Shown here: positions 5,414-13,564 of the stretch, in pieces | Layout of the letters: each line of letters begins with the position of its first letter | How positions within the stretch are numbered: the stretch's first letter is position 1 | DNA from: Amoebophilaceae bacterium UBA1467 | Lineage (GTDB): Bacteria > Bacteroidota > Bacteroidia > Cytophagales > Amoebophilaceae | Assembly: GCA_002325615.1 (NCBI GenBank) | Contig: DCSL01000020.1 | Location: 1,585 to 27,825, forward strand | Direction: 5' to 3' | Length of the DNA: 26,241 nt | Notes under the pieces: model-generated | Seen by the model: only the letters and a program-made list of their open reading frames with translations | The model's database searches: none | What the model was told of the DNA's origin: nothing | Program-made: the position numbers and the translations under genes

Positions 5414-8400
5414 ATGAACACACGGCATAAAGCTTATGGCCTGCCTTGCGTTTTCCTACTGATCAGCATGCTATTTTCTGCTTATGCCCAAAATGATCGC
5501 AGTGAGCAGCAACAAGAAGCATGGGTAGACAATGTATTTCAGAGCCTTTCTGAAGAGCAACGTATTGCACAGCTTTTTTTGGTAGCGGCCTATGCTAACA
5601 AGGATGAAGCACATTATAGTGCTATTGAGGAGCTTATTCAACGTTATAACATTGGTGGACTTATCTTTTTTCAAGGAACCCCTATCAACCAAGTCGCGCT
5701 CACCAACCGCTATCAACAAACGGCTCCAACCCCGCTACTCATTGCCACGGATGCAGAATGGGGCTTAGGAATGCGCCTTGACGGTACGATCAGCTACCCT
5801 AAGCCAATGACGCTAGGGGCCCTGCAGGATGATACGTTGATCTACGACATGGGTACTGAAATTGCGCGGCAGCTCAAGCGAATAGGAGTGCACATCAACT
5901 TTGCTCCTGTCATGGATGTCAATAGCAATCCTAGCAACTCGGTGATTGGAGAAAGGTCCTTCGGGGAGTGCAAAGAAAAAGTAGCAGTCAAGGGAATTGC
6001 TTACATCAAGGGATTACAAGACCACGGTATTTTGGCTGTAGCCAAGCATTTTCCTGGCCATGGGGATACGAGCCAAGACTCCCACTACGCGTTGCCCACG
6101 ATTGCGCATGATCGGAACAGATTGGATGCGCTGGAGCTATTTCCTTTCAAGAAGGCCATTGCGGCAGGCATCCAAGGAATGATGGTCGCACACCTGCATG
6201 TGCCTGCTTATGATGCTACACCACAACGCGCCACGACGCTTTGTAAAAAAGTGGTTACAGACCTACTCAAGACTCAACTAGGGTTTCAGGGGTTGGTCTT
6301 TACCGATGCCTTAAACATGAAGGGAGTCAGTGCCCATCATCAGCCTGGAGAAGTTGATTTACTGGCCCTTCAGGCAGGCAACGATGTACTGGTATTTCCA
6401 GAAGATGTTTCCAAAGCTATTGCCCTTATTAGGCAAGCTATTCAGCAAAAAAAGCTGGATGGCCAGGCCATGAACGCAAAAGTAAAGCGCCTCTTACGAC
6501 TGAAATATCAGATGCAGTTGTCTACCTGGCAACCTATTGAAACGCAAAACCTAGAAGCACAACTACACACCCCCCAAGCACATCTGCTCAAACAGTTGTT
6601 GTTTGAGCAGGCGGTCACAGTTGTGGCTAACGAGGGTCGGTTGATTCCACTCAAAAATCTAGCATACCACAACATCGCTTGCTTGTCTATCGTCAATGAC
6701 GATGACACTAAAAAGCCCAAGGAAGCTGCTGCAACAGCAATGAGTACTACGCAGAGCTGTGGGCTTAGTGCAGCCGAACTGTTCCCTAGCATGCTCAAAA
6801 AATACGCACCCATGGCTCAACATACCCTGATCCGCGGGACAATCACGCCAGAAGCAGTCAACACACTGGCTAACAAGCTCAAGCAGTACCAAGTAGTCAT
6901 TGTAGGCATTCACGGCATGAGCGAAAAACGCAGCAGCAACTTTGGTCTCCAAACAGAGGAGTTGCAGTTACTAAAGTCCCTGGAAAAGGATACAGCACTC
7001 ATCATCGTTCCTTTCGGAAATGTATATAGCCTAGCGCACTTCCAAACATTCAAGCATGTTATTATGCCCTACGAAGATGACCCTGTAGCTGCCAAGATAG
7101 TGCCACAAATCATCTTTGGCGCCTTATCATCCAAGGGCACGCTGCCTGTCAGCATTCCAGGGGGTTGGGCAGCAGGCCAAGGCATCCGAACAGAAAAAAT
7201 ATCGCGGCTTGGCTATGCGCCTCCTGAGGCAGCAGATATGGACAGCCAAATACTTCAAACCATCGACGACATTGTGGAAAAAGCCATTGCTGAAGAATCA
7301 ATGCCCAGTTGCCAGGTGTTGGTGGCCCGAAAAGGGAAAGTGGTTTTTGACAAAAGTTACGGGTACCACACTGATGCAAAAAGAAAGCCCGTAACGCCCG
7401 ATACAATGTATGATATTGCTTCTGTTACTAAGGTCGTGGGGACCCTACAAGCACTGATGTATTTGGCTGGAACCGAGCAACTCAATATCAATAAAAAGCT
7501 TTCTTTTTACCTTCCCTCACTCAAAGGCACCAACAAAGGAGCTTTAAAGATTCGGCGCATTCTAGCCCACCAAGCAGGCCTGCCGGCTTATGTATGGGGC
7601 GAGATCAGGCAGACCTTATTCGATGCAAACGGCAGATTGAGAAAGGCATTATTCAGCACCCATCCTTCTCCTACCTATCAGCACCAGTTGGCTAGTGACT
7701 TATATGGAGCCACGTGGCTCAAAGAACTCGTATGGGACTGCTGCGTCAACACTGCATTAAGAGACAAAAGCTGGTTCAAGAGCTACAGTTATCAATACAG
7801 CTGCGTAGGTTTTTATTTCCTCCATCACCTGGCAGAAAAGCTGCTCGAACAACCCTTAGACAATTTTTTAGAAGCAACGTTTTATCGTCCTTTAGGACTG
7901 GCTACCCTAACGTACCATCCTTTGCATAAGTTGGCACAAGATCGTATGGCACCTACTGAAAAGGATAATTTTTTTAGACAAGACCTGCTTCAGGGCGTGG
8001 TGCACGACCTTATGGCCGCACTCTATGGCGGTGTAGCCGGCAATTCAGGGCTTTTTAGTAATGCGAATGACCTGGCTATCGTGCTACAGATGAACCTGCA
8101 GGATGGCTATTATGGAGACCAACGGTATCTCCAAAAAGGGGTGGTCCAATCATTTGCTAAAAAGAGTTTCAAGGACAATCGCAGAGGTTTGGGGGGGACA
8201 AATCGGACAAGCACAATGCCCCATCTACCGCTTCAGTACATGCCTCTGAAGACAGCTATGACCATAGTGGATTTACAGGGACAGCCGTTTGGTATACGAG
8301 GCCATGATGAGCCGGTTCGATGGTATGTAAAAAAATTGTCGCGCAACAAGTGCTATAGGTCACCCCTTTCATCACCCAATGATCAATGCCCAAATGCACA

Positions 8401-8437
8401 AACCAAGAAATACTTACTTTTGACATCCACTAAATAG
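5414..8437 (+). CDS. GH3 beta-N-acetylglucosaminidase (NagZ-like) fused to a beta-lactamase-like serine hydrolase domain; C-terminus frameshifted
   Basis: Signal peptide; ATDAEWGLGMR, NFAPVMDVN, KHFPGHGDTSQDSH and FTDALNM (GH3 motifs intact); YDIASVTK (SxxK) in the C-terminal domain. Similarity is lost after RRGLG at about 8194. Confidence 0.92.
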   Translation: MNTRHKAYGLPCVFLLISMLFSAYAQNDRSEQQQEAWVDNVFQSLSEEQRIAQLFLVAAYANKDEAHYSAIEELIQRYNIGGLIFFQGTPINQVALTNRYQQTAPTPLLIATDAEWGLGMRLDGTISYPKPMTLGALQDDTLIYDMGTEIARQLKRIGVHINFAPVMDVNSNPSNSVIGERSFGECKEKVAVKGIAYIKGLQDHGILAVAKHFPGHGDTSQDSHYALPTIAHDRNRLDALELFPFKKAIAAGIQGMMVAHLHVPAYDATPQRATTLCKKVVTDLLKTQLGFQGLVFTDALNMKGVSAHHQPGEVDLLALQAGNDVLVFPEDVSKAIALIRQAIQQKKLDGQAMNAKVKRLLRLKYQMQLSTWQPIETQNLEAQLHTPQAHLLKQLLFEQAVTVVANEGRLIPLKNLAYHNIACLSIVNDDDTKKPKEAAATAMSTTQSCGLSAAELFPSMLKKYAPMAQHTLIRGTITPEAVNTLANKLKQYQVVIVGIHGMSEKRSSNFGLQTEELQLLKSLEKDTALIIVPFGNVYSLAHFQTFKHVIMPYEDDPVAAKIVPQIIFGALSSKGTLPVSIPGGWAAGQGIRTEKISRLGYAPPEAADMDSQILQTIDDIVEKAIAEESMPSCQVLVARKGKVVFDKSYGYHTDAKRKPVTPDTMYDIASVTKVVGTLQALMYLAGTEQLNINKKLSFYLPSLKGTNKGALKIRRILAHQAGLPAYVWGEIRQTLFDANGRLRKALFSTHPSPTYQHQLASDLYGATWLKELVWDCCVNTALRDKSWFKSYSYQYSCVGFYFLHHLAEKLLEQPLDNFLEATFYRPLGLATLTYHPLHKLAQDRMAPTEKDNFFRQDLLQGVVHDLMAALYGGVAGNSGLFSNANDLAIVLQMNLQDGYYGDQRYLQKGVVQSFAKKSFKDNRRGLGGTNRTSTMPHLPLQYMPLKTAMTIVDLQGQPFGIRGHDEPVRWYVKKLSRNKCYRSPLSSPNDQCPNAQTKKYLLLTSTK
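8197..8307 (+). pseudogene. Out-of-frame remnant of the beta-lactamase-like domain C-terminus
   Basis: The shifted frame reads DKSDKHNAPSTASVHASEDSYDHSGFTGTAVWYTRP*. It contains the family's (W)DK and H(T/S)GFTGT..W motifs immediately after a G7 run at 8191-8197. Confidence 0.85.
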
Positions 8438-9344: not shown

Positions 9345-9821
9345 ATGTTTGGCAGTGCTAAGAAAGAAATTTCCCAGGAGGAGTTGAGCAACTCCAGCAA
9401 CATCATTGGCAAAGGGACGAGCTTAGAAGGCAACTTAAATACAGCAGGGAACTTGCGTGTGGAAGGCAAGGTAAAGGGGAATATCCAAACTAAAGCCAAG
9501 GTAGTATTAGGAGAAACCGCAGTGCTAGAAGGAAATATCATCGCCCAAACTGCAGAAATCAGCGGCGAGGTGCAGGGCACGATCACAGTGTCGGGCCTTT
9601 TGACTTTAAAGCCAACCGCTGTTGTCAATGGAGATATTACTACTAGCAAGCTGGTGTTTGAAGAGGGAGCCAAGTTCAACGGAAAATGCAACATGGGTAA
9701 CTCCTTCAAAGAGACCAAAGCTACACAACCTCCAACTACCTCCCACAAAAAAAATGAAAGTCCTATTGAGCCCCATCTCCAACAAGTCACGCTCTCCCAA
9801 ACAGGAGGACAGGGCGCCTAG
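9345..9821 (+). CDS. Bactofilin (polymer-forming cytoskeletal protein, CcmA/BacA family)
   Basis: IIGKGTSLEGNL...LRVEGKVKGNI...AEISGEVQGTI...VNGDITTSKLVFEEGAKFNGKCNM beta-helix repeats. Confidence 0.95.
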   Translation: MFGSAKKEISQEELSNSSNIIGKGTSLEGNLNTAGNLRVEGKVKGNIQTKAKVVLGETAVLEGNIIAQTAEISGEVQGTITVSGLLTLKPTAVVNGDITTSKLVFEEGAKFNGKCNMGNSFKETKATQPPTTSHKKNESPIEPHLQQVTLSQTGGQGA

Positions 9822-10020
9822 CAGCTACCTCCAATACACCCACTTGAGCTTTCAAATGATGGCTATCATAGGCGCAGGAGTGTGGCTAGGTATACAACTG
9901 GATACTTACTTGCAGCTAGCATTCCCAGTCTTTATGAGCATACTGGCACCTGTCAGTACTGCGTATGCGGTTTACGTCGTCATCAAAACCCTTTCCCAGC
10001 ACCCTCCCCCAAACACTTAG
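9754..10020 (+). CDS. AtpZ/AtpI family small membrane protein
   Basis: YLQYTHLSFQMMAIIGAGVWLGIQLDTYL..FPVF matches the Bacteroidota AtpZ/I pattern (GxWLGxxLD); two TM helices; follows bactofilin. Start uncertain (ATG 9754 or TTG 9766), within ORF 9622..10020. Confidence 0.75.
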   Translation: MKVLLSPISNKSRSPKQEDRAPSSYLQYTHLSFQMMAIIGAGVWLGIQLDTYLQLAFPVFMSILAPVSTAYAVYVVIKTLSQHPPPNT

Positions 10021-10090: not shown

Positions 10091-13000
10091 ATGCATTATC
10101 TTAGTATAGATTACTTGATTATTTATGCGTTCTTGCTCATCACCCTTGTTATAGGCCTCTGTGCGGGTAGGGGTATCACAGACATTCGGGAGTATGCCAA
10201 TGCTAACAAGATATTTGGGACCGGGGCATTGGTGCTAACTTGGCTAGCTACAGATGTTGCAGGAGAAACTGTGTTGGATATGACGGGTTCTGTGAGAACC
10301 GCAGGCATCATACAGCCACTTACGGTTTTTGGCGGTTGGGCCATTGCCATATTGCTACAGGCGCTGGTGTTTGCCCCTAGGTTTATTCAGTTTAGCAACT
10401 GTATTACCATGGGAGACGTCATGGGAGTGCTTTATAAAGGTCCTAGTCAGGTCATGACAGGGATATTGGGCTTCTTCACGGCGCTCTGTATTGCAGGGAT
10501 GGAGCTAACGGTCATAGGCATACTCAGTGAGAGCCTGGGTATTGGCTTTCACGTCGGGGTCTGGGTGGGGGGTATGTTGCTGGTGTTGTATACCACCCAT
10601 GGTGGCATTAAGTCAGTGGCTTTCACAGATGTGTTTCAAGGACTCGTACTGTTTGCTGTTTTGCCGATCATCACAGTAGCGGCTTTGAAACAAGCAGGGG
10701 GCATCAAGCAAGTGTTGATCCAGGTGCCCACTACACAACTGCAATTGTTGAACCACCCTAAGTCATCCTACTATACAGCACTGTTCCTATCGCTCAGTAT
10801 TTTCCAGTTTTCTGTCATTGACCCTGCCCTGATGCAGCGCATACTGATGGGAAGAACCAAACAGCAGTTGCGCAATCAATTTTTTATCGTAGCGGCATGT
10901 TTATTGGCCTTGATGGTTGCTTTATCCTTGCTGGGACTTGCGAGCATCGTTTTACTGCCCGACGAAAACACAGATGTGCCTATAGTGCTACGCATCATTG
11001 AGCATATTCTCCCCATAGGGCTGAAAGGGTTGGCCTTGGCAGGCCTTATAGCCATTACCATGGCAACGTTCGATTCATTTCTGCATGCGGCAGGGCTCAC
11101 CTTAATTCATGATGTTATTTATCCAGTATGTAAAAGGCTGGGCAACACCATCGACGAACTAAAATGGGTGCGCTATGCTACGGTTTGTATAGGTATTGCC
11201 GTTATTGTGATTGGCTCAATGCGTGCAAATGATCTCTATAACTATGTATTGCTCTCTTATAAATTTACGGGCCCCCTATTAGCCTTCCCACTTTTTGCAG
11301 GTGTCTTGGGGCTTAAACCTGATCAAAAAGCTTTTTATGCTGCTTCGGGCGTGACCATCGCAGTGATTTTGCTGAGTGAGTGGTTGTTGCCAGCATCTCA
11401 AGATCGTTGGGTTTCAGTGGTGGGAGTGGTCACTAATGGGATAGTCTTTTTGGGCATCCATGCTATACGCAACCATGGCTTTGCTATTGTCAATCGTACT
11501 CATAGCAAAGAATATTTGTGGAGACCACACCGTGCAAGCATATGGACGCAGCTTAAGCAGTTGCTACCCACACCCCAGCGTATAGTACAGTATTCGCAAA
11601 GGCAAGTAGCACATTATGGTGCACCCTATGCTTTATTCGGCATATTCTGCTGTGTCAACTATCTCTTTCCATACTTCATGTGGGAGCATGACGCCCCTGC
11701 TTCTTATAACTTGATGCTTTATTTGCGTACCCTAGGTGTCCTTGCCTGTGGTTTGTTGCTCGTGAGAGACAAATGGACCCAATCTTTGCTGCCATACCTA
11801 CCCACCTTCTGGCACTTGACACTGCTCTACTGCCTGCCCTTTACCAGCACCGTCATGTTCTTGCTCACCCAAGGAAGTGTAGAGTGGCTCATCAATGTGG
11901 CCCTCACCATCATGTTCCTCATTGTCCTCGTAGACTGGATGAGCTTTATGATCCTTACAATACTAGGTATAGCCCTGGGTTTTCTCTTCTACACACTAGC
12001 CATTGGCCCGATCAGCCTGCAACTGGACTTTAGTACCGGGTATTTGTTGTTATACCAAGGCATCTTTGCCACGCTCATCGGCCTGCTTTTTGCGCGTAGG
12101 AAGCAACTACACTTTGACACCTTGGCCACCCAGCAAAAACAGTTGGCTATCGATAACCAGGCAAGCAAAGAAGAACTCATAGAAGCCACAGAAAAAGAGT
12201 TTCGGTTTGTGAGCCTCCTCAAAAAGGCCGGCATAGAACAACTAGGGAGTGTAGCCCACCTGAGCAAAAAACTCCTAGCCATCAGCCAACAGAAAGGTGA
12301 CATCAAGGAATTCGAAAAACTAGCCCAGCAACTCACTGACCAGCTCACCCCCATGGCCCTAAGTATGGATAAATTTATACACCGTACCACAGGCTTTTTA
12401 CTCCTGGATGGCGTGGAGACACTACCACTTGACAACTTCTTGCAAGCCCTACAACAGGCGTTCTATAAAAAGGGCCAAAGACTTAAGATAGAAGTACGTA
12501 CACAACACAAAACGTTACAGTGTGATATAGAAAAGATGAAGAAGGTGATTCTGAACGGTTTCTCTTTCGTGCAGTCAGTGGCTGGAGAAAGAGAACAAGG
12601 ACCTGTGTTACTAGGTATAGAAGATACGCGGCTAGGCTATGCGGTGGACTCTGTAAGCCCTGATCACATCAAGAAAATAAGGGCCCTGCGATTTGCCATT
12701 ACTACTGCCCCCACACTACCTACGCTAGCTGCGCTGTACACGGCACAAATAGGTGAGGAAAGCATTATGAAACCCGAAGCACCCACTAATATGCCTCTAT
12801 TGGCGAACGAGCGGATTGTGAAGGCTCACTATGGTTACAGCAGCACGATCAGTGAGGGCAATGAGCTCACGCTAGTCTATGTCATTCCTGTCAACGTCCG
12901 AGAGGTGCGTTCCAAAGACATGGATATGCCACATATGAAGCTAGGTGAGGAGTGGCTTCGGGCCGATGATACCTACCCAGGCGCACAAGAGCAAGAGCAA

Positions 13001-13564
13001 ACATTCCTCCAAGCAGTCAAAGAGCGGTCACAAGCAGGTCTCTCCCTAGTAGAAAAAGCCATCAATCTGATCAAGGACTACCACGGTCCTGTCATGCGTC
13101 AGAGTGGCGAGCCGTTTTACTTACATCCGATTGCAGTAGCACAGATTGTACTGGACTATAACACCGACGAAGCCACTGTATTGGGAGCCCTCTTGCACGA
13201 TATAGTAGAGGATACTCCCCTGACGCTAGAGCAGATAGAATTGTTGTTTAATAAGGAAGTAAGCAACATTGTAAGCGGGGTAACCCACATGGAGAGCAAC
13301 AAAGAGACGCTCTATCAAGTGCTGCTCTCCCATCCTGAAAACATCCATAGGCTCTTAGGAGCCGAAGACCCACGAGTGTTGTATGTGAAGCTAGCCGACC
13401 GCATGCACAACCTACGTACCATTCAGGCCAGATCTTATGAGAGCCAACACAGAACTGCTGAGGAGACGTTGCTCTTCTTTGTGCCCTTGGCCAAGTACTT
13501 AGGCCTCAGTGAGGCTGCTGAGGAACTTAAGCACAGGAGTTTTGGGGTGCTGGGGAGCATGTAG
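10091..13564 (+). CDS. Na+/solute symporter (SSS/PutP-like) - multi-TM module - pseudo-histidine-kinase - RelA/SpoT HD hydrolase fusion
   Basis: aa 1-~460 SSS (YTTHGGIKSVAFTDVFQ, DPALMQR, LKGLALAGLIAITMATFDS). aa ~512-669 about 5-6 further TM helices. aa ~700-935 kinase-like fold lacking catalytic motifs. aa ~985-1150 HD domain (YHGPVMRQSGEPFYLHP, LLHDIVEDT, VKLADRMHNLRT). Confidence 0.9.
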   Translation: MHYLSIDYLIIYAFLLITLVIGLCAGRGITDIREYANANKIFGTGALVLTWLATDVAGETVLDMTGSVRTAGIIQPLTVFGGWAIAILLQALVFAPRFIQFSNCITMGDVMGVLYKGPSQVMTGILGFFTALCIAGMELTVIGILSESLGIGFHVGVWVGGMLLVLYTTHGGIKSVAFTDVFQGLVLFAVLPIITVAALKQAGGIKQVLIQVPTTQLQLLNHPKSSYYTALFLSLSIFQFSVIDPALMQRILMGRTKQQLRNQFFIVAACLLALMVALSLLGLASIVLLPDENTDVPIVLRIIEHILPIGLKGLALAGLIAITMATFDSFLHAAGLTLIHDVIYPVCKRLGNTIDELKWVRYATVCIGIAVIVIGSMRANDLYNYVLLSYKFTGPLLAFPLFAGVLGLKPDQKAFYAASGVTIAVILLSEWLLPASQDRWVSVVGVVTNGIVFLGIHAIRNHGFAIVNRTHSKEYLWRPHRASIWTQLKQLLPTPQRIVQYSQRQVAHYGAPYALFGIFCCVNYLFPYFMWEHDAPASYNLMLYLRTLGVLACGLLLVRDKWTQSLLPYLPTFWHLTLLYCLPFTSTVMFLLTQGSVEWLINVALTIMFLIVLVDWMSFMILTILGIALGFLFYTLAIGPISLQLDFSTGYLLLYQGIFATLIGLLFARRKQLHFDTLATQQKQLAIDNQASKEELIEATEKEFRFVSLLKKAGIEQLGSVAHLSKKLLAISQQKGDIKEFEKLAQQLTDQLTPMALSMDKFIHRTTGFLLLDGVETLPLDNFLQALQQAFYKKGQRLKIEVRTQHKTLQCDIEKMKKVILNGFSFVQSVAGEREQGPVLLGIEDTRLGYAVDSVSPDHIKKIRALRFAITTAPTLPTLAALYTAQIGEESIMKPEAPTNMPLLANERIVKAHYGYSSTISEGNELTLVYVIPVNVREVRSKDMDMPHMKLGEEWLRADDTYPGAQEQEQTFLQAVKERSQAGLSLVEKAINLIKDYHGPVMRQSGEPFYLHPIAVAQIVLDYNTDEATVLGALLHDIVEDTPLTLEQIELLFNKEVSNIVSGVTHMESNKETLYQVLLSHPENIHRLLGAEDPRVLYVKLADRMHNLRTIQARSYESQHRTAEETLLFFVPLAKYLGLSEAAEELKHRSFGVLGSM

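Follow-up and report, generated by a model that had tools for sequence, protein, structure and literature searches.

Within a 26,241-nucleotide stretch of the genome of Amoebophilaceae bacterium UBA1467 (assembly GCA_002325615.1, contig DCSL01000020.1, forward-strand positions 1,585 to 27,825; hereafter the window), a single forward-strand gene, P0001 (window positions 10091-13564), codes for a protein of 1157 amino acids whose parts appear to come from a transporter, a sensor kinase and an alarmone hydrolase. From the N-terminus, these are a sodium/solute symporter (SSS) domain, a module of six transmembrane helices (6TM), a region with the fold of a histidine kinase that is predicted to be catalytically dead, and a Rel-type HD hydrolase domain. 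On the basis of sequence and structural models, we give about an even chance to the reading that this protein is a one-component transceptor, in which solute sensing by the SSS domain, relayed through the 6TM module and the dead kinase, would control a Rel-type (p)ppGpp hydrolase. An initial annotation had presented the gene as a candidate new signalling system, and this stands in part: the wiring had gone unrecognised, while the genes themselves had already been counted (PMC3153485, PMC6232779, PMC8831229). The gene family is already catalogued; what is new is a sensor kinase or transceptor wired to the hydrolase output of a RelA/SpoT homologue (RSH) and, from the present copy, a synthetase partner with a dead hydrolase domain, the lack of receiver domains, the wide distribution of the 6TM module and the phyletic pattern.

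Domain architecture of the P0001 protein

Analysis of the open reading frames in the window finds P0001 to be one open frame of 1157 codons, and its ATG and N-terminus agree with the starts of its homologues. The uninterrupted frame and the domain coordinates given in the initial annotation prove accurate when set against the frame itself, Pfam, hydropathy and a full-length AlphaFold2 (AF2) model, the last of which (predicted local distance difference test, pLDDT, 80) has the same helices as are found by hydropathy. The protein has 19 transmembrane (TM) helices in total, the HD domain makes up its C-terminal 15%, and a Pfam domain scan identifies both SSF and HD_4.

The HD domain (residues 985-1157; 13043-13561) is matched by Pfam HD_4 over residues 990-1139 (E 4e-29; 102 bits against a cut-off of 27.2), spanning profile positions 1-155 of 156. 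The NCBIfam model spoT_relA matches over only the first 165 of its 687 positions, so the protein has a hydrolase and lacks synthetase, TGS and ACT regions; the initial annotation had stated that there is no synthetase. The best sequence matches in the Protein Data Bank (PDB) are hydrolase domains of Rel enzymes, namely 8acu from B. subtilis Rel (7e-34) and 1vj7 from RelSeq (3e-32), as against 1e-11 for Mesh1 and 1e-11 to 6e-6 for other small or (p)ppApp hydrolases. Foldseek with the HD domain retrieves 7oiw, 1vj7, 6s2v and 7qpr (E 6e-9 to 1e-8), with a root-mean-square deviation of 2.1-2.6 Å over about 190 residues and 32-38% identity. The metal-binding and catalytic residues of RelSeq, in the numbering of 1VJ7, are R44, H53, H77, D78, E81, D82, D144 and N148; their equivalents in P0001 (R1003, H1012, H1036, D1037, E1040, D1041, D1103 and N1107) are all present, and each is invariant or at least 90% conserved in 38 homologues, with H1106 likewise invariant or nearly so. 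The pair H1036-D1037 corresponds to codons 13196-13201, the His-Asp codons that the initial annotation had picked out. Paralogues on contigs C83, C3 and C21 also have the catalytic set intact, as do the best copies of six genera. Used alone as a query, the HD domain brought up chiefly fragments belonging to this family, then fragments of long RSH proteins, and no named rickettsial proteins.

The region between the membrane and the HD domain had been described as a cytoplasmic linker; profile matches to the PDB, Foldseek and alignment instead indicate a folded pseudo-histidine-kinase. A profile of residues 668-975, built from 37 homologues, has its best PDB matches among sensor kinases (ThkA, 3a0r, E 0.002; ZraS, 9jfj, E 0.009), in alignments that span the N-box helix and the C-terminal strands. 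The AF2 model of residues 668-1157 (pLDDT 84; predicted template-modelling score, pTM, 0.77) begins with a hairpin of helices, followed by an alpha/beta sandwich and lastly the helical HD domain, and with the roughly 260 residues that precede the HD domain Foldseek recovers whole cytoplasmic regions of the kinases HK853, ZraS, RetS, HprS, DivL and LvrB at probability 1.0. The kinase ancestry of the middle region is drawn from these profile and fold matches and not from a comparison by hhalign of the middle-region profile with the kinase tail of a related protein, P0121 (described below), which gave no match (probability 0.2).

What marks the kinase as dead is the loss of its motifs. The hairpin (residues 669-768; 12095-12394) resembles the dimerisation and histidine phosphotransfer (DHp) domain without a phospho-acceptor histidine, no alignment column in 668-800 having His at 30% or more. 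The sandwich (residues 775-935; 12413-12895) has the HATPase_c-type fold of a catalytic and ATP-binding (CA) domain whose ATP-binding motifs are lost: the N-box Asn is kept in just 22 of 38 sequences, no G1 or G2 glycine box is conserved in the alignment of 38, and Pfam HATPase_c matches none of 37 members. Pfam otherwise gives chance-level matches in the middle region, and neither a STAC nor a PAS domain was found between the SSS and kinase-like parts at E values up to 1. Residues 668-975 are thus best described as a predicted pseudo-histidine-kinase, with DHp and CA folds and without catalytic capacity. In the full-length AF2 model the last TM helix extends unbroken (residues 647-712) into the cytoplasm and the DHp-like hairpin, which would be the geometry that kinases use for signal transmission. 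A connector between the CA-like and HD domains (residues 936-984; 12896-13042) is strongly conserved in the homologue alignment. When the pseudo-kinase region was modelled as a homodimer, the prediction scored 0.27 where the mark is 0.42, and it counts as evidence in neither direction.

The 6TM module (residues 511-668; 11621-12094), which the initial annotation had recognised as a second module of five or six TM helices, has six helices by both hydropathy and AF2 and is, from its relatives, a putative membrane transmitter of histidine-kinase type. It has chance-level matches only in Pfam and none in a profile search of the PDB, and it is among the best conserved parts of the protein: mean identity among homologues is 61% for the HD domain, 59% for the 6TM module, 44% for the SSS domain and 37% for the middle region. 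A profile search of 1.84 billion representatives matched 1385 cluster representatives. In the matches sampled, the module lies at residues ~470-680 of proteins that combine SSF with either HATPase_c (~920-1000 aa) or HD_4 (~1150 aa), and the named carriers include one Alphaproteobacteria metagenome-assembled genome (MAG), where it belongs to a sensor histidine kinase (P0271), and one Verrucomicrobia MAG. Beyond Amoebophilaceae, a sample of 401 Bacteroidota genomes has the module in a single further family (genomes of 2-3 Mb), where it heads hybrid kinases of the form 6TM-HisKA-HATPase_c-REC-REC in 54 of the 87 genomes sampled (for example L070:842-2971, reverse strand, and L071:443-3133, forward strand); one such kinase has Hpt in addition. 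The module looks like an undescribed input domain of kinases.

The link to P0001 itself is provided by P0121, a protein of 983 aa from one Amoebophilaceae genome, which is 38% identical to P0001 over residues 1-670 and continues with an H-box and a real HATPase_c domain; the similarity stops exactly past the last TM helix. The analogy with SSS-histidine-kinase fusions that was drawn initially is thereby upheld, and since SSS and 6TM together carry a real kinase in relatives, P0001 looks like a sensor kinase whose output has been rewired to a hydrolase. Further SSS-6TM copies in Amoebophilaceae have degenerate tails and no HD domain. The simplest history suggested by these sequences would lead from a 6TM-kinase through an SSS-6TM-kinase to an SSS-6TM-pseudokinase-HD protein.

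The SSS domain (residues 1-460; 10091-11470) lies where the initial annotation had placed a symporter. Pfam SSF (PF00474, TC 2.A.21) matches residues 43-398 (E 1e-19; 71 bits against a cut-off of 22.8), and hydropathy and AF2 (pLDDT 80-94) agree on 13 helices, the topology of a 13-TM LeuT-fold core. TIGR00813 matches at E 7e-24, below that model's own cut-off, the PutP and PanF equivalog models match far under theirs, and solved SLC5 transporters match weakly (E 1e-5). The Na2 site of PutP comprises positions A53, M56, A337, S340 and T341. P0001 has A53, V56, A321 and T326 at the corresponding places, with Ala325 as the equivalent of S340; among 38 homologues, A53 is found in all 38, A321 in 33, T or S at 326 in 37, and Ser at 325 in 29. 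A K/R-rich cytoplasmic linker, with eight K/R in the loop by hydropathy and low pLDDT at 498-511 in the full-length model, joins the SSS domain to the 6TM module (residues 461-510; 11471-11620).

Alarmone enzymes and gene copies in Amoebophilaceae

If P0001 degrades alarmone, the other enzymes of alarmone metabolism in the genome (G000; 0.86 Mb, 92.9% complete) are of particular interest. The genome has exactly one RelA_SpoT synthetase domain, in a long RSH of 598 aa (P0123) that lies outside the window, on contig C28 (C28:2641-4434; L008:1321-3114), and consists of HD, synthetase and TGS domains with no ACT. Its synthetase motifs align with those of B. subtilis Rel, and its HD domain has lost the catalytic set, with Y, Q, Y, E, Q and K in the positions that correspond to R44, H53, H77, D144, H147 and N148. 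To judge by these residues, the C28 protein is a RelA-like, synthetase-only enzyme. As the sole synthetase enzyme carries a dead HD domain, alarmone hydrolysis must come in trans, and the genome has 14 matches to HD_4. One of these, within the window like P0001, is in a stand-alone gene on the reverse strand (2072-2746) that codes for a 224-aa protein that resembles small alarmone hydrolases (HD_4 E 7e-18) and has the full catalytic set; it overlaps the 3' end of a major facilitator superfamily transporter gene on the opposite strand (802-2139, forward). This protein would be a second, soluble source of hydrolase in the window.

Two-component signalling appears, from the gene content, to have been dismantled in the same genome. 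No response-regulator (Response_reg/REC) domain was found at 92.9% completeness, which makes a phosphorelay output unlikely. The sole protein of histidine-kinase type with a real HATPase_c domain is a 491-aa 6TM-kinase on contig C81 (P0388; L072:1498-2970), in which the H-box His is replaced by Ala; the other HATPase_c matches are to a protein of DNA-gyrase-B type on C47 and three of unassigned identity.

We surveyed 48 Amoebophilaceae genomes, which are mutually related and not independent samples, so no statistic is claimed. Fusion-protein matches occur in 45 of the 48, at 3-23 per genome, and among the genomes searched the fusion family is confined to Amoebophilaceae. A synthetase enzyme is present in 42 of the 48, and its HD domain is degenerate in most of them; among the loci checked it is intact in only five, three of which are in genomes with no other HD_4 (G028, G032 and G036) and two in genomes with other HD_4 domains (G035 and G037). 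The genomes without a fusion copy (G005, G006 and G007, of three genera and 0.7 Mb each) have no HD_4 at all. No synthetase was found in G006, and none in G007 as checked only with the C28 long RSH as query.

The fusion family is large. A search of a large protein collection yielded more than 300 full-length proteins of ~1150 aa that likewise combine SSF with HD_4, at 38-85% identity to P0001; those that are named come from Bacteroidota, Amoebophilaceae or Candidatus Amoebophilus MAGs, and the nearest genome loci are in Amoebophilaceae or Cytophagales MAGs. The mention, in the initial annotation, of similar architectures in Amoebophilus and Cardinium is borne out by these homologues and by counts in the literature; the source organism itself belongs to an uncultured genus, found in microbial mats, that is distinct from both. 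In the closed 1.19 Mb genome G008 (genus g6) there are 33 HD_4 matches, and copies of ~1160 aa, about 3.7 kb apart, form tandem arrays on its contig C1 (~181-204 kb and ~322-376 kb). At about 3.5 kb per copy, 33 copies amount to roughly 10% of a 1.2 Mb genome, which makes this the most expanded gene family of these symbionts.

In the source genome, at least six long copies can be counted besides fragments: those on C78, C3, C21, C38 and C83, and on C2 one that is split or degenerate. Contig-end fragments and remnants, such as those on C31 (with two TAG stops) and C50, occur as well. Many contig ends (on C83, C23, C39, C52, C72, C73 and C74) lie within family copies, so the true number of copies exceeds the full-length count, and family copies are a main cause of fragmentation of this assembly. 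Over residues 647-1156, the C83 copy shares 81-87% identity with that of the window. Among paralogues of the same genome more generally, identity is 47-56% in the HD domain, about 30% in the middle region and 23-30% in the membrane part, a pattern which, on sequence, is the one expected for a conserved output with diversified inputs.

Comparison of P0001 with orthologues and with the C83 paralogue gives ratios of nonsynonymous to synonymous substitution rates (dN/dS) of 0.13-0.15 for the SSS domain, 0.07-0.14 for 6TM, 0.09-0.28 for the pseudo-kinase, 0.06-0.09 for the connector and 0.06-0.15 for HD; the overall range for the six named domains is 0.06-0.28, the exception being a short linker in a single comparison with an orthologue. 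All of the named domains evolve under purifying selection. In metagenome runs of microbial mats, drawn from several studies, 0.86-0.95 of the gene's sampled words are present. Logan contigs tile the gene, and none spans it or gives an independent bridge across its domain junctions, with breaks between 11885 and 13486; they break because paralogues share sequence there, as the rise in word depth indicates.

P0001 is flanked in the window by housekeeping genes, upstream by a bactofilin gene and an AtpI-like gene and downstream by the convergent glmS, with no conserved partner gene beside it. The AtpI-like gene (9622-10020, forward strand) codes for a small membrane protein of the AtpI/ATPase_gene1 type, lies 70 bp upstream of P0001 and is not followed by ATP synthase genes. 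A scan for sigma-70 promoters and terminators around the fusion gene, which does not cover Bacteroidota promoters, gave no more matches than shuffled controls. Elsewhere in the window, an open reading frame of 1007 aa (5414-8437, forward strand) combines a GH3 domain of NagZ type with a domain of beta-lactamase fold; in the latter, the best Pfam beta-lactamase stretch covers the first 156 of 329 profile positions, and the C-terminal part may be damaged.

Proposed mechanism and alternatives

We propose that P0001 may be a membrane sensor descended from an SSS-6TM-histidine-kinase. The dead kinase core would act as a transmission scaffold, probably dimeric, and the output would be a Rel-derived, Mn-dependent 3'-pyrophosphohydrolase that degrades (p)ppGpp. 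Binding of a host-derived solute at the SSS domain, or its Na+-coupled transport, would change the conformation of the 6TM transmitter, and the signal would travel along the unbroken helix from TM19 to the DHp-like hairpin and through the CA-like domain to turn the activity of the HD domain on or off. In this way, alarmone from the RSH with the dead hydrolase would be removed when that solute is available. Within this scheme we infer the substrate, the coupling of solute to hydrolase with its direction and sign, and dimerisation; the choice of ppGpp as substrate is strengthened by the dead HD domain of the sole synthetase RSH. The initial annotation had pictured a single switch, which does not fit a gene that is one of at least six long paralogues here and of 3-33 copies per roughly 1 Mb genome in the family as a whole. 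The HD domain is retained among the paralogues and the SSS domain varies, so that they would report different solutes. Extended to the whole family, this leads to a broader and more tentative proposal, one that we think somewhat less likely than not: that two-component signalling has been dismantled and Rel split, with synthesis left to a ribosome-type, hydrolase-dead RSH and hydrolysis distributed over 3-33 membrane transceptors, each reporting a different host solute.

Several observations weigh against the transceptor proposal. HD residues are partly degenerate in some copies (C2 and C38 of this genome, the latter by a change from D to E, and others in G009 and G017), which suggests that hydrolysis is not family-wide. 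One genome without any HD_4 (G005) has a weak synthetase-like match of 36.7 bits, and another, G033 (96% complete), has one fusion copy and no synthetase domain detected. In P0001 itself, the presence of Ala in place of the Na2-site Ser at position 325 may weaken the predicted Na+ coupling. Coupling is in any case not to be assumed, as in CbrA, the SSS-kinase that has been studied best, the kinase still signals without the SSS domain (PMC7918813). Finally, of the 19 family-type symporter genes of A. asiaticus, 10 are lowered in expression early in infection and 10 raised late (PMC8831229), a pattern that is no obvious fit to the 'resume growth' switch that had been suggested initially.

Could the signal run in the opposite direction? 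The HD domain and pseudo-kinase tail might read (p)ppGpp by binding or turnover and gate uptake through the SSS domain, so that starvation would tune import. Copies with a degenerate HD domain do persist and are conserved, which would suit regulation by ligand binding; the signal sensed by CbrA is thought to be intracellular (PMC7918813), and in annotation and expression the family resembles nutrient transporters (PMC8831229). Yet mere binding would not require the full catalytic set that is strongly constrained in most copies, the dead HD domain of the sole synthetase enzyme points to a need for real hydrolases, and the 6TM module of the parent architecture leads to a kinase output; we think this direction unlikely. 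A simpler suggestion is that there is no allostery at all: a working symporter would tether a constitutive alarmone hydrolase to the membrane, and the expansion would be one of transporters, with the tail carried along. Such expansions are typical of metabolically dependent symbionts (PMC8831229, PMC5615194), the SSS part is the most divergent between paralogues, and Na2-site positions are mostly kept in the family. Conservation of the 6TM module, pseudo-kinase and connector at dN/dS 0.06-0.28 is nonetheless hard to account for in a passive tether of ~500 residues, and the modelled continuous helix from TM19 to DHp would be a classic transmission geometry; we regard a passive tether as unlikely too.

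The HD domain might instead act on something other than (p)ppGpp, for instance (p)ppApp or pGpp, NADPH, on which Mesh1 is reported to act, or a nucleotide derived from the host, in which case there would be no control of the stringent response. The fusion copy of G033, where no synthetase was detected, would fit this reading, and small alarmone hydrolases can be promiscuous (PMC9765508). This seems improbable given that the domain is so much nearer to Rel (E 1e-32 to 1e-34) than to Mesh1 and (p)ppApp hydrolases, and that a synthetase with a dead HD domain co-occurs with it in this genome and in most genomes of the family. The remaining alternative, a decaying or selfish repeat or an assembly chimera without cellular function, would draw on the fragments and pseudogenised remnants mentioned above, on the listing of SSS/HD fragments as candidate MITEs (miniature transposable elements with inverted repeats) in one Cardinium (PMC12039267) and on the breaks in Logan contigs. 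The window copy has an open full-length frame with every named domain constrained. A chimera, which the initial annotation had named as the outcome that would undo it, is ruled out by the more than 300 full-length homologues, the occurrence of full-length copies on closed genomes, and four metagenome runs that show no joints or indels in the gene. We consider this alternative very improbable, and for this copy effectively refuted.

Comparison with known systems

If the broader proposal for the whole family is correct, alarmone level in these bacteria would be a direct read-out of inflowing host nutrients, a previously undescribed form of host sensing for an obligate intracellular bacterium. 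The family may bear on two questions, namely how obligate intracellular bacteria with tiny genomes sense host nutrients and how hydrolase-only RSH proteins are regulated, and would illustrate from nature how a sensor kinase can exchange its phosphorelay output for an enzymatic one. Its parts are simple enough for tests in E. coli and in proteoliposomes.

The family has been met before under other names. Atkinson et al. (2011) reported a 'rickSpo[H] expansion' of 15 RSHs in Ca. Amoebophilus asiaticus without mention of a membrane part (PMC3153485); the putative assignment of the present family to rickSpo is taken from what their Tables 1 and 2 give for Ca. Amoebophilus. Jimmy et al. (2020) placed RickSpo among long-RSH-derived proteins with lost domains (PMC7229694). 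P0001 shares with long-RSH HD domains and rickSpo the HD_4 domain, the full Mn-binding and catalytic set and 32-38% identity to Rel HD, and with rickSpo the absence of a synthetase; unlike here, both surveys treat rickSpo as small single-domain hydrolases and mention no symporter or membrane part. For Amoebophilus, Brown et al. (2018) counted '18 homologs of spoT ... /sodium glucose cotransporter', and for Cardinium 2-7 (PMC6232779), Selberherr et al. (2022) described 19 'putative sodium/solute symporters', of unassigned function, that are regulated through the A. asiaticus life cycle (PMC8831229), and Hubert et al. (2025) treated family fragments as MITE candidates (PMC12039267). By homology and annotation strings, these multi-copy genes belong to the family of P0001, and what papers on Cardinium and Amoebophilus genomes label 'symporter' or 'spoT' is one kind of composite protein. 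The last three papers count or name the genes only, and in the literature found there is no description of the pseudo-kinase, the 6TM module or the wiring, and no functional test.

Among fusions of symporters with kinases, the closest are the SSS-6TM-kinases (~910-1000 aa; P0121 and P0271), which have the same SSS and 6TM parts followed by a cytoplasmic DHp and CA fold. These proteins keep the H-box His and a HATPase_c domain detectable by Pfam, whereas P0001 has lost both and gained a Rel-type HD domain; both groups are expanded in obligate intracellular bacteria. Driscoll et al. (2017) described SLC5-kinase fusions ('SLC5sbd+HK') of Rickettsiales that have proliferated in Orientia, with lateral transfer to Amoebophilus and Cardinium (PMC5615194). 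The likeness of P0001 to these includes the 6TM module in so far as it is known here from P0121 and P0271, not from the rickettsial proteins themselves.

A 2021 review of prokaryotic SSS proteins lists only fusions to STAC, PAS and kinase domains. Of these, CbrA, which combines histidine transport with signalling, CrbS/MxtR and RpuS (PMC7096432, PMC7918813, PMC9100948) resemble P0001 in that an N-terminal 13-TM SSS domain is fused to signalling domains, an arrangement referred to as a transceptor. P0001 differs from the CbrA type in having no STAC, PAS, active kinase or response regulator, with the 6TM module in the place of STAC, and in that its predicted output is an enzyme acting on a nucleotide second messenger.

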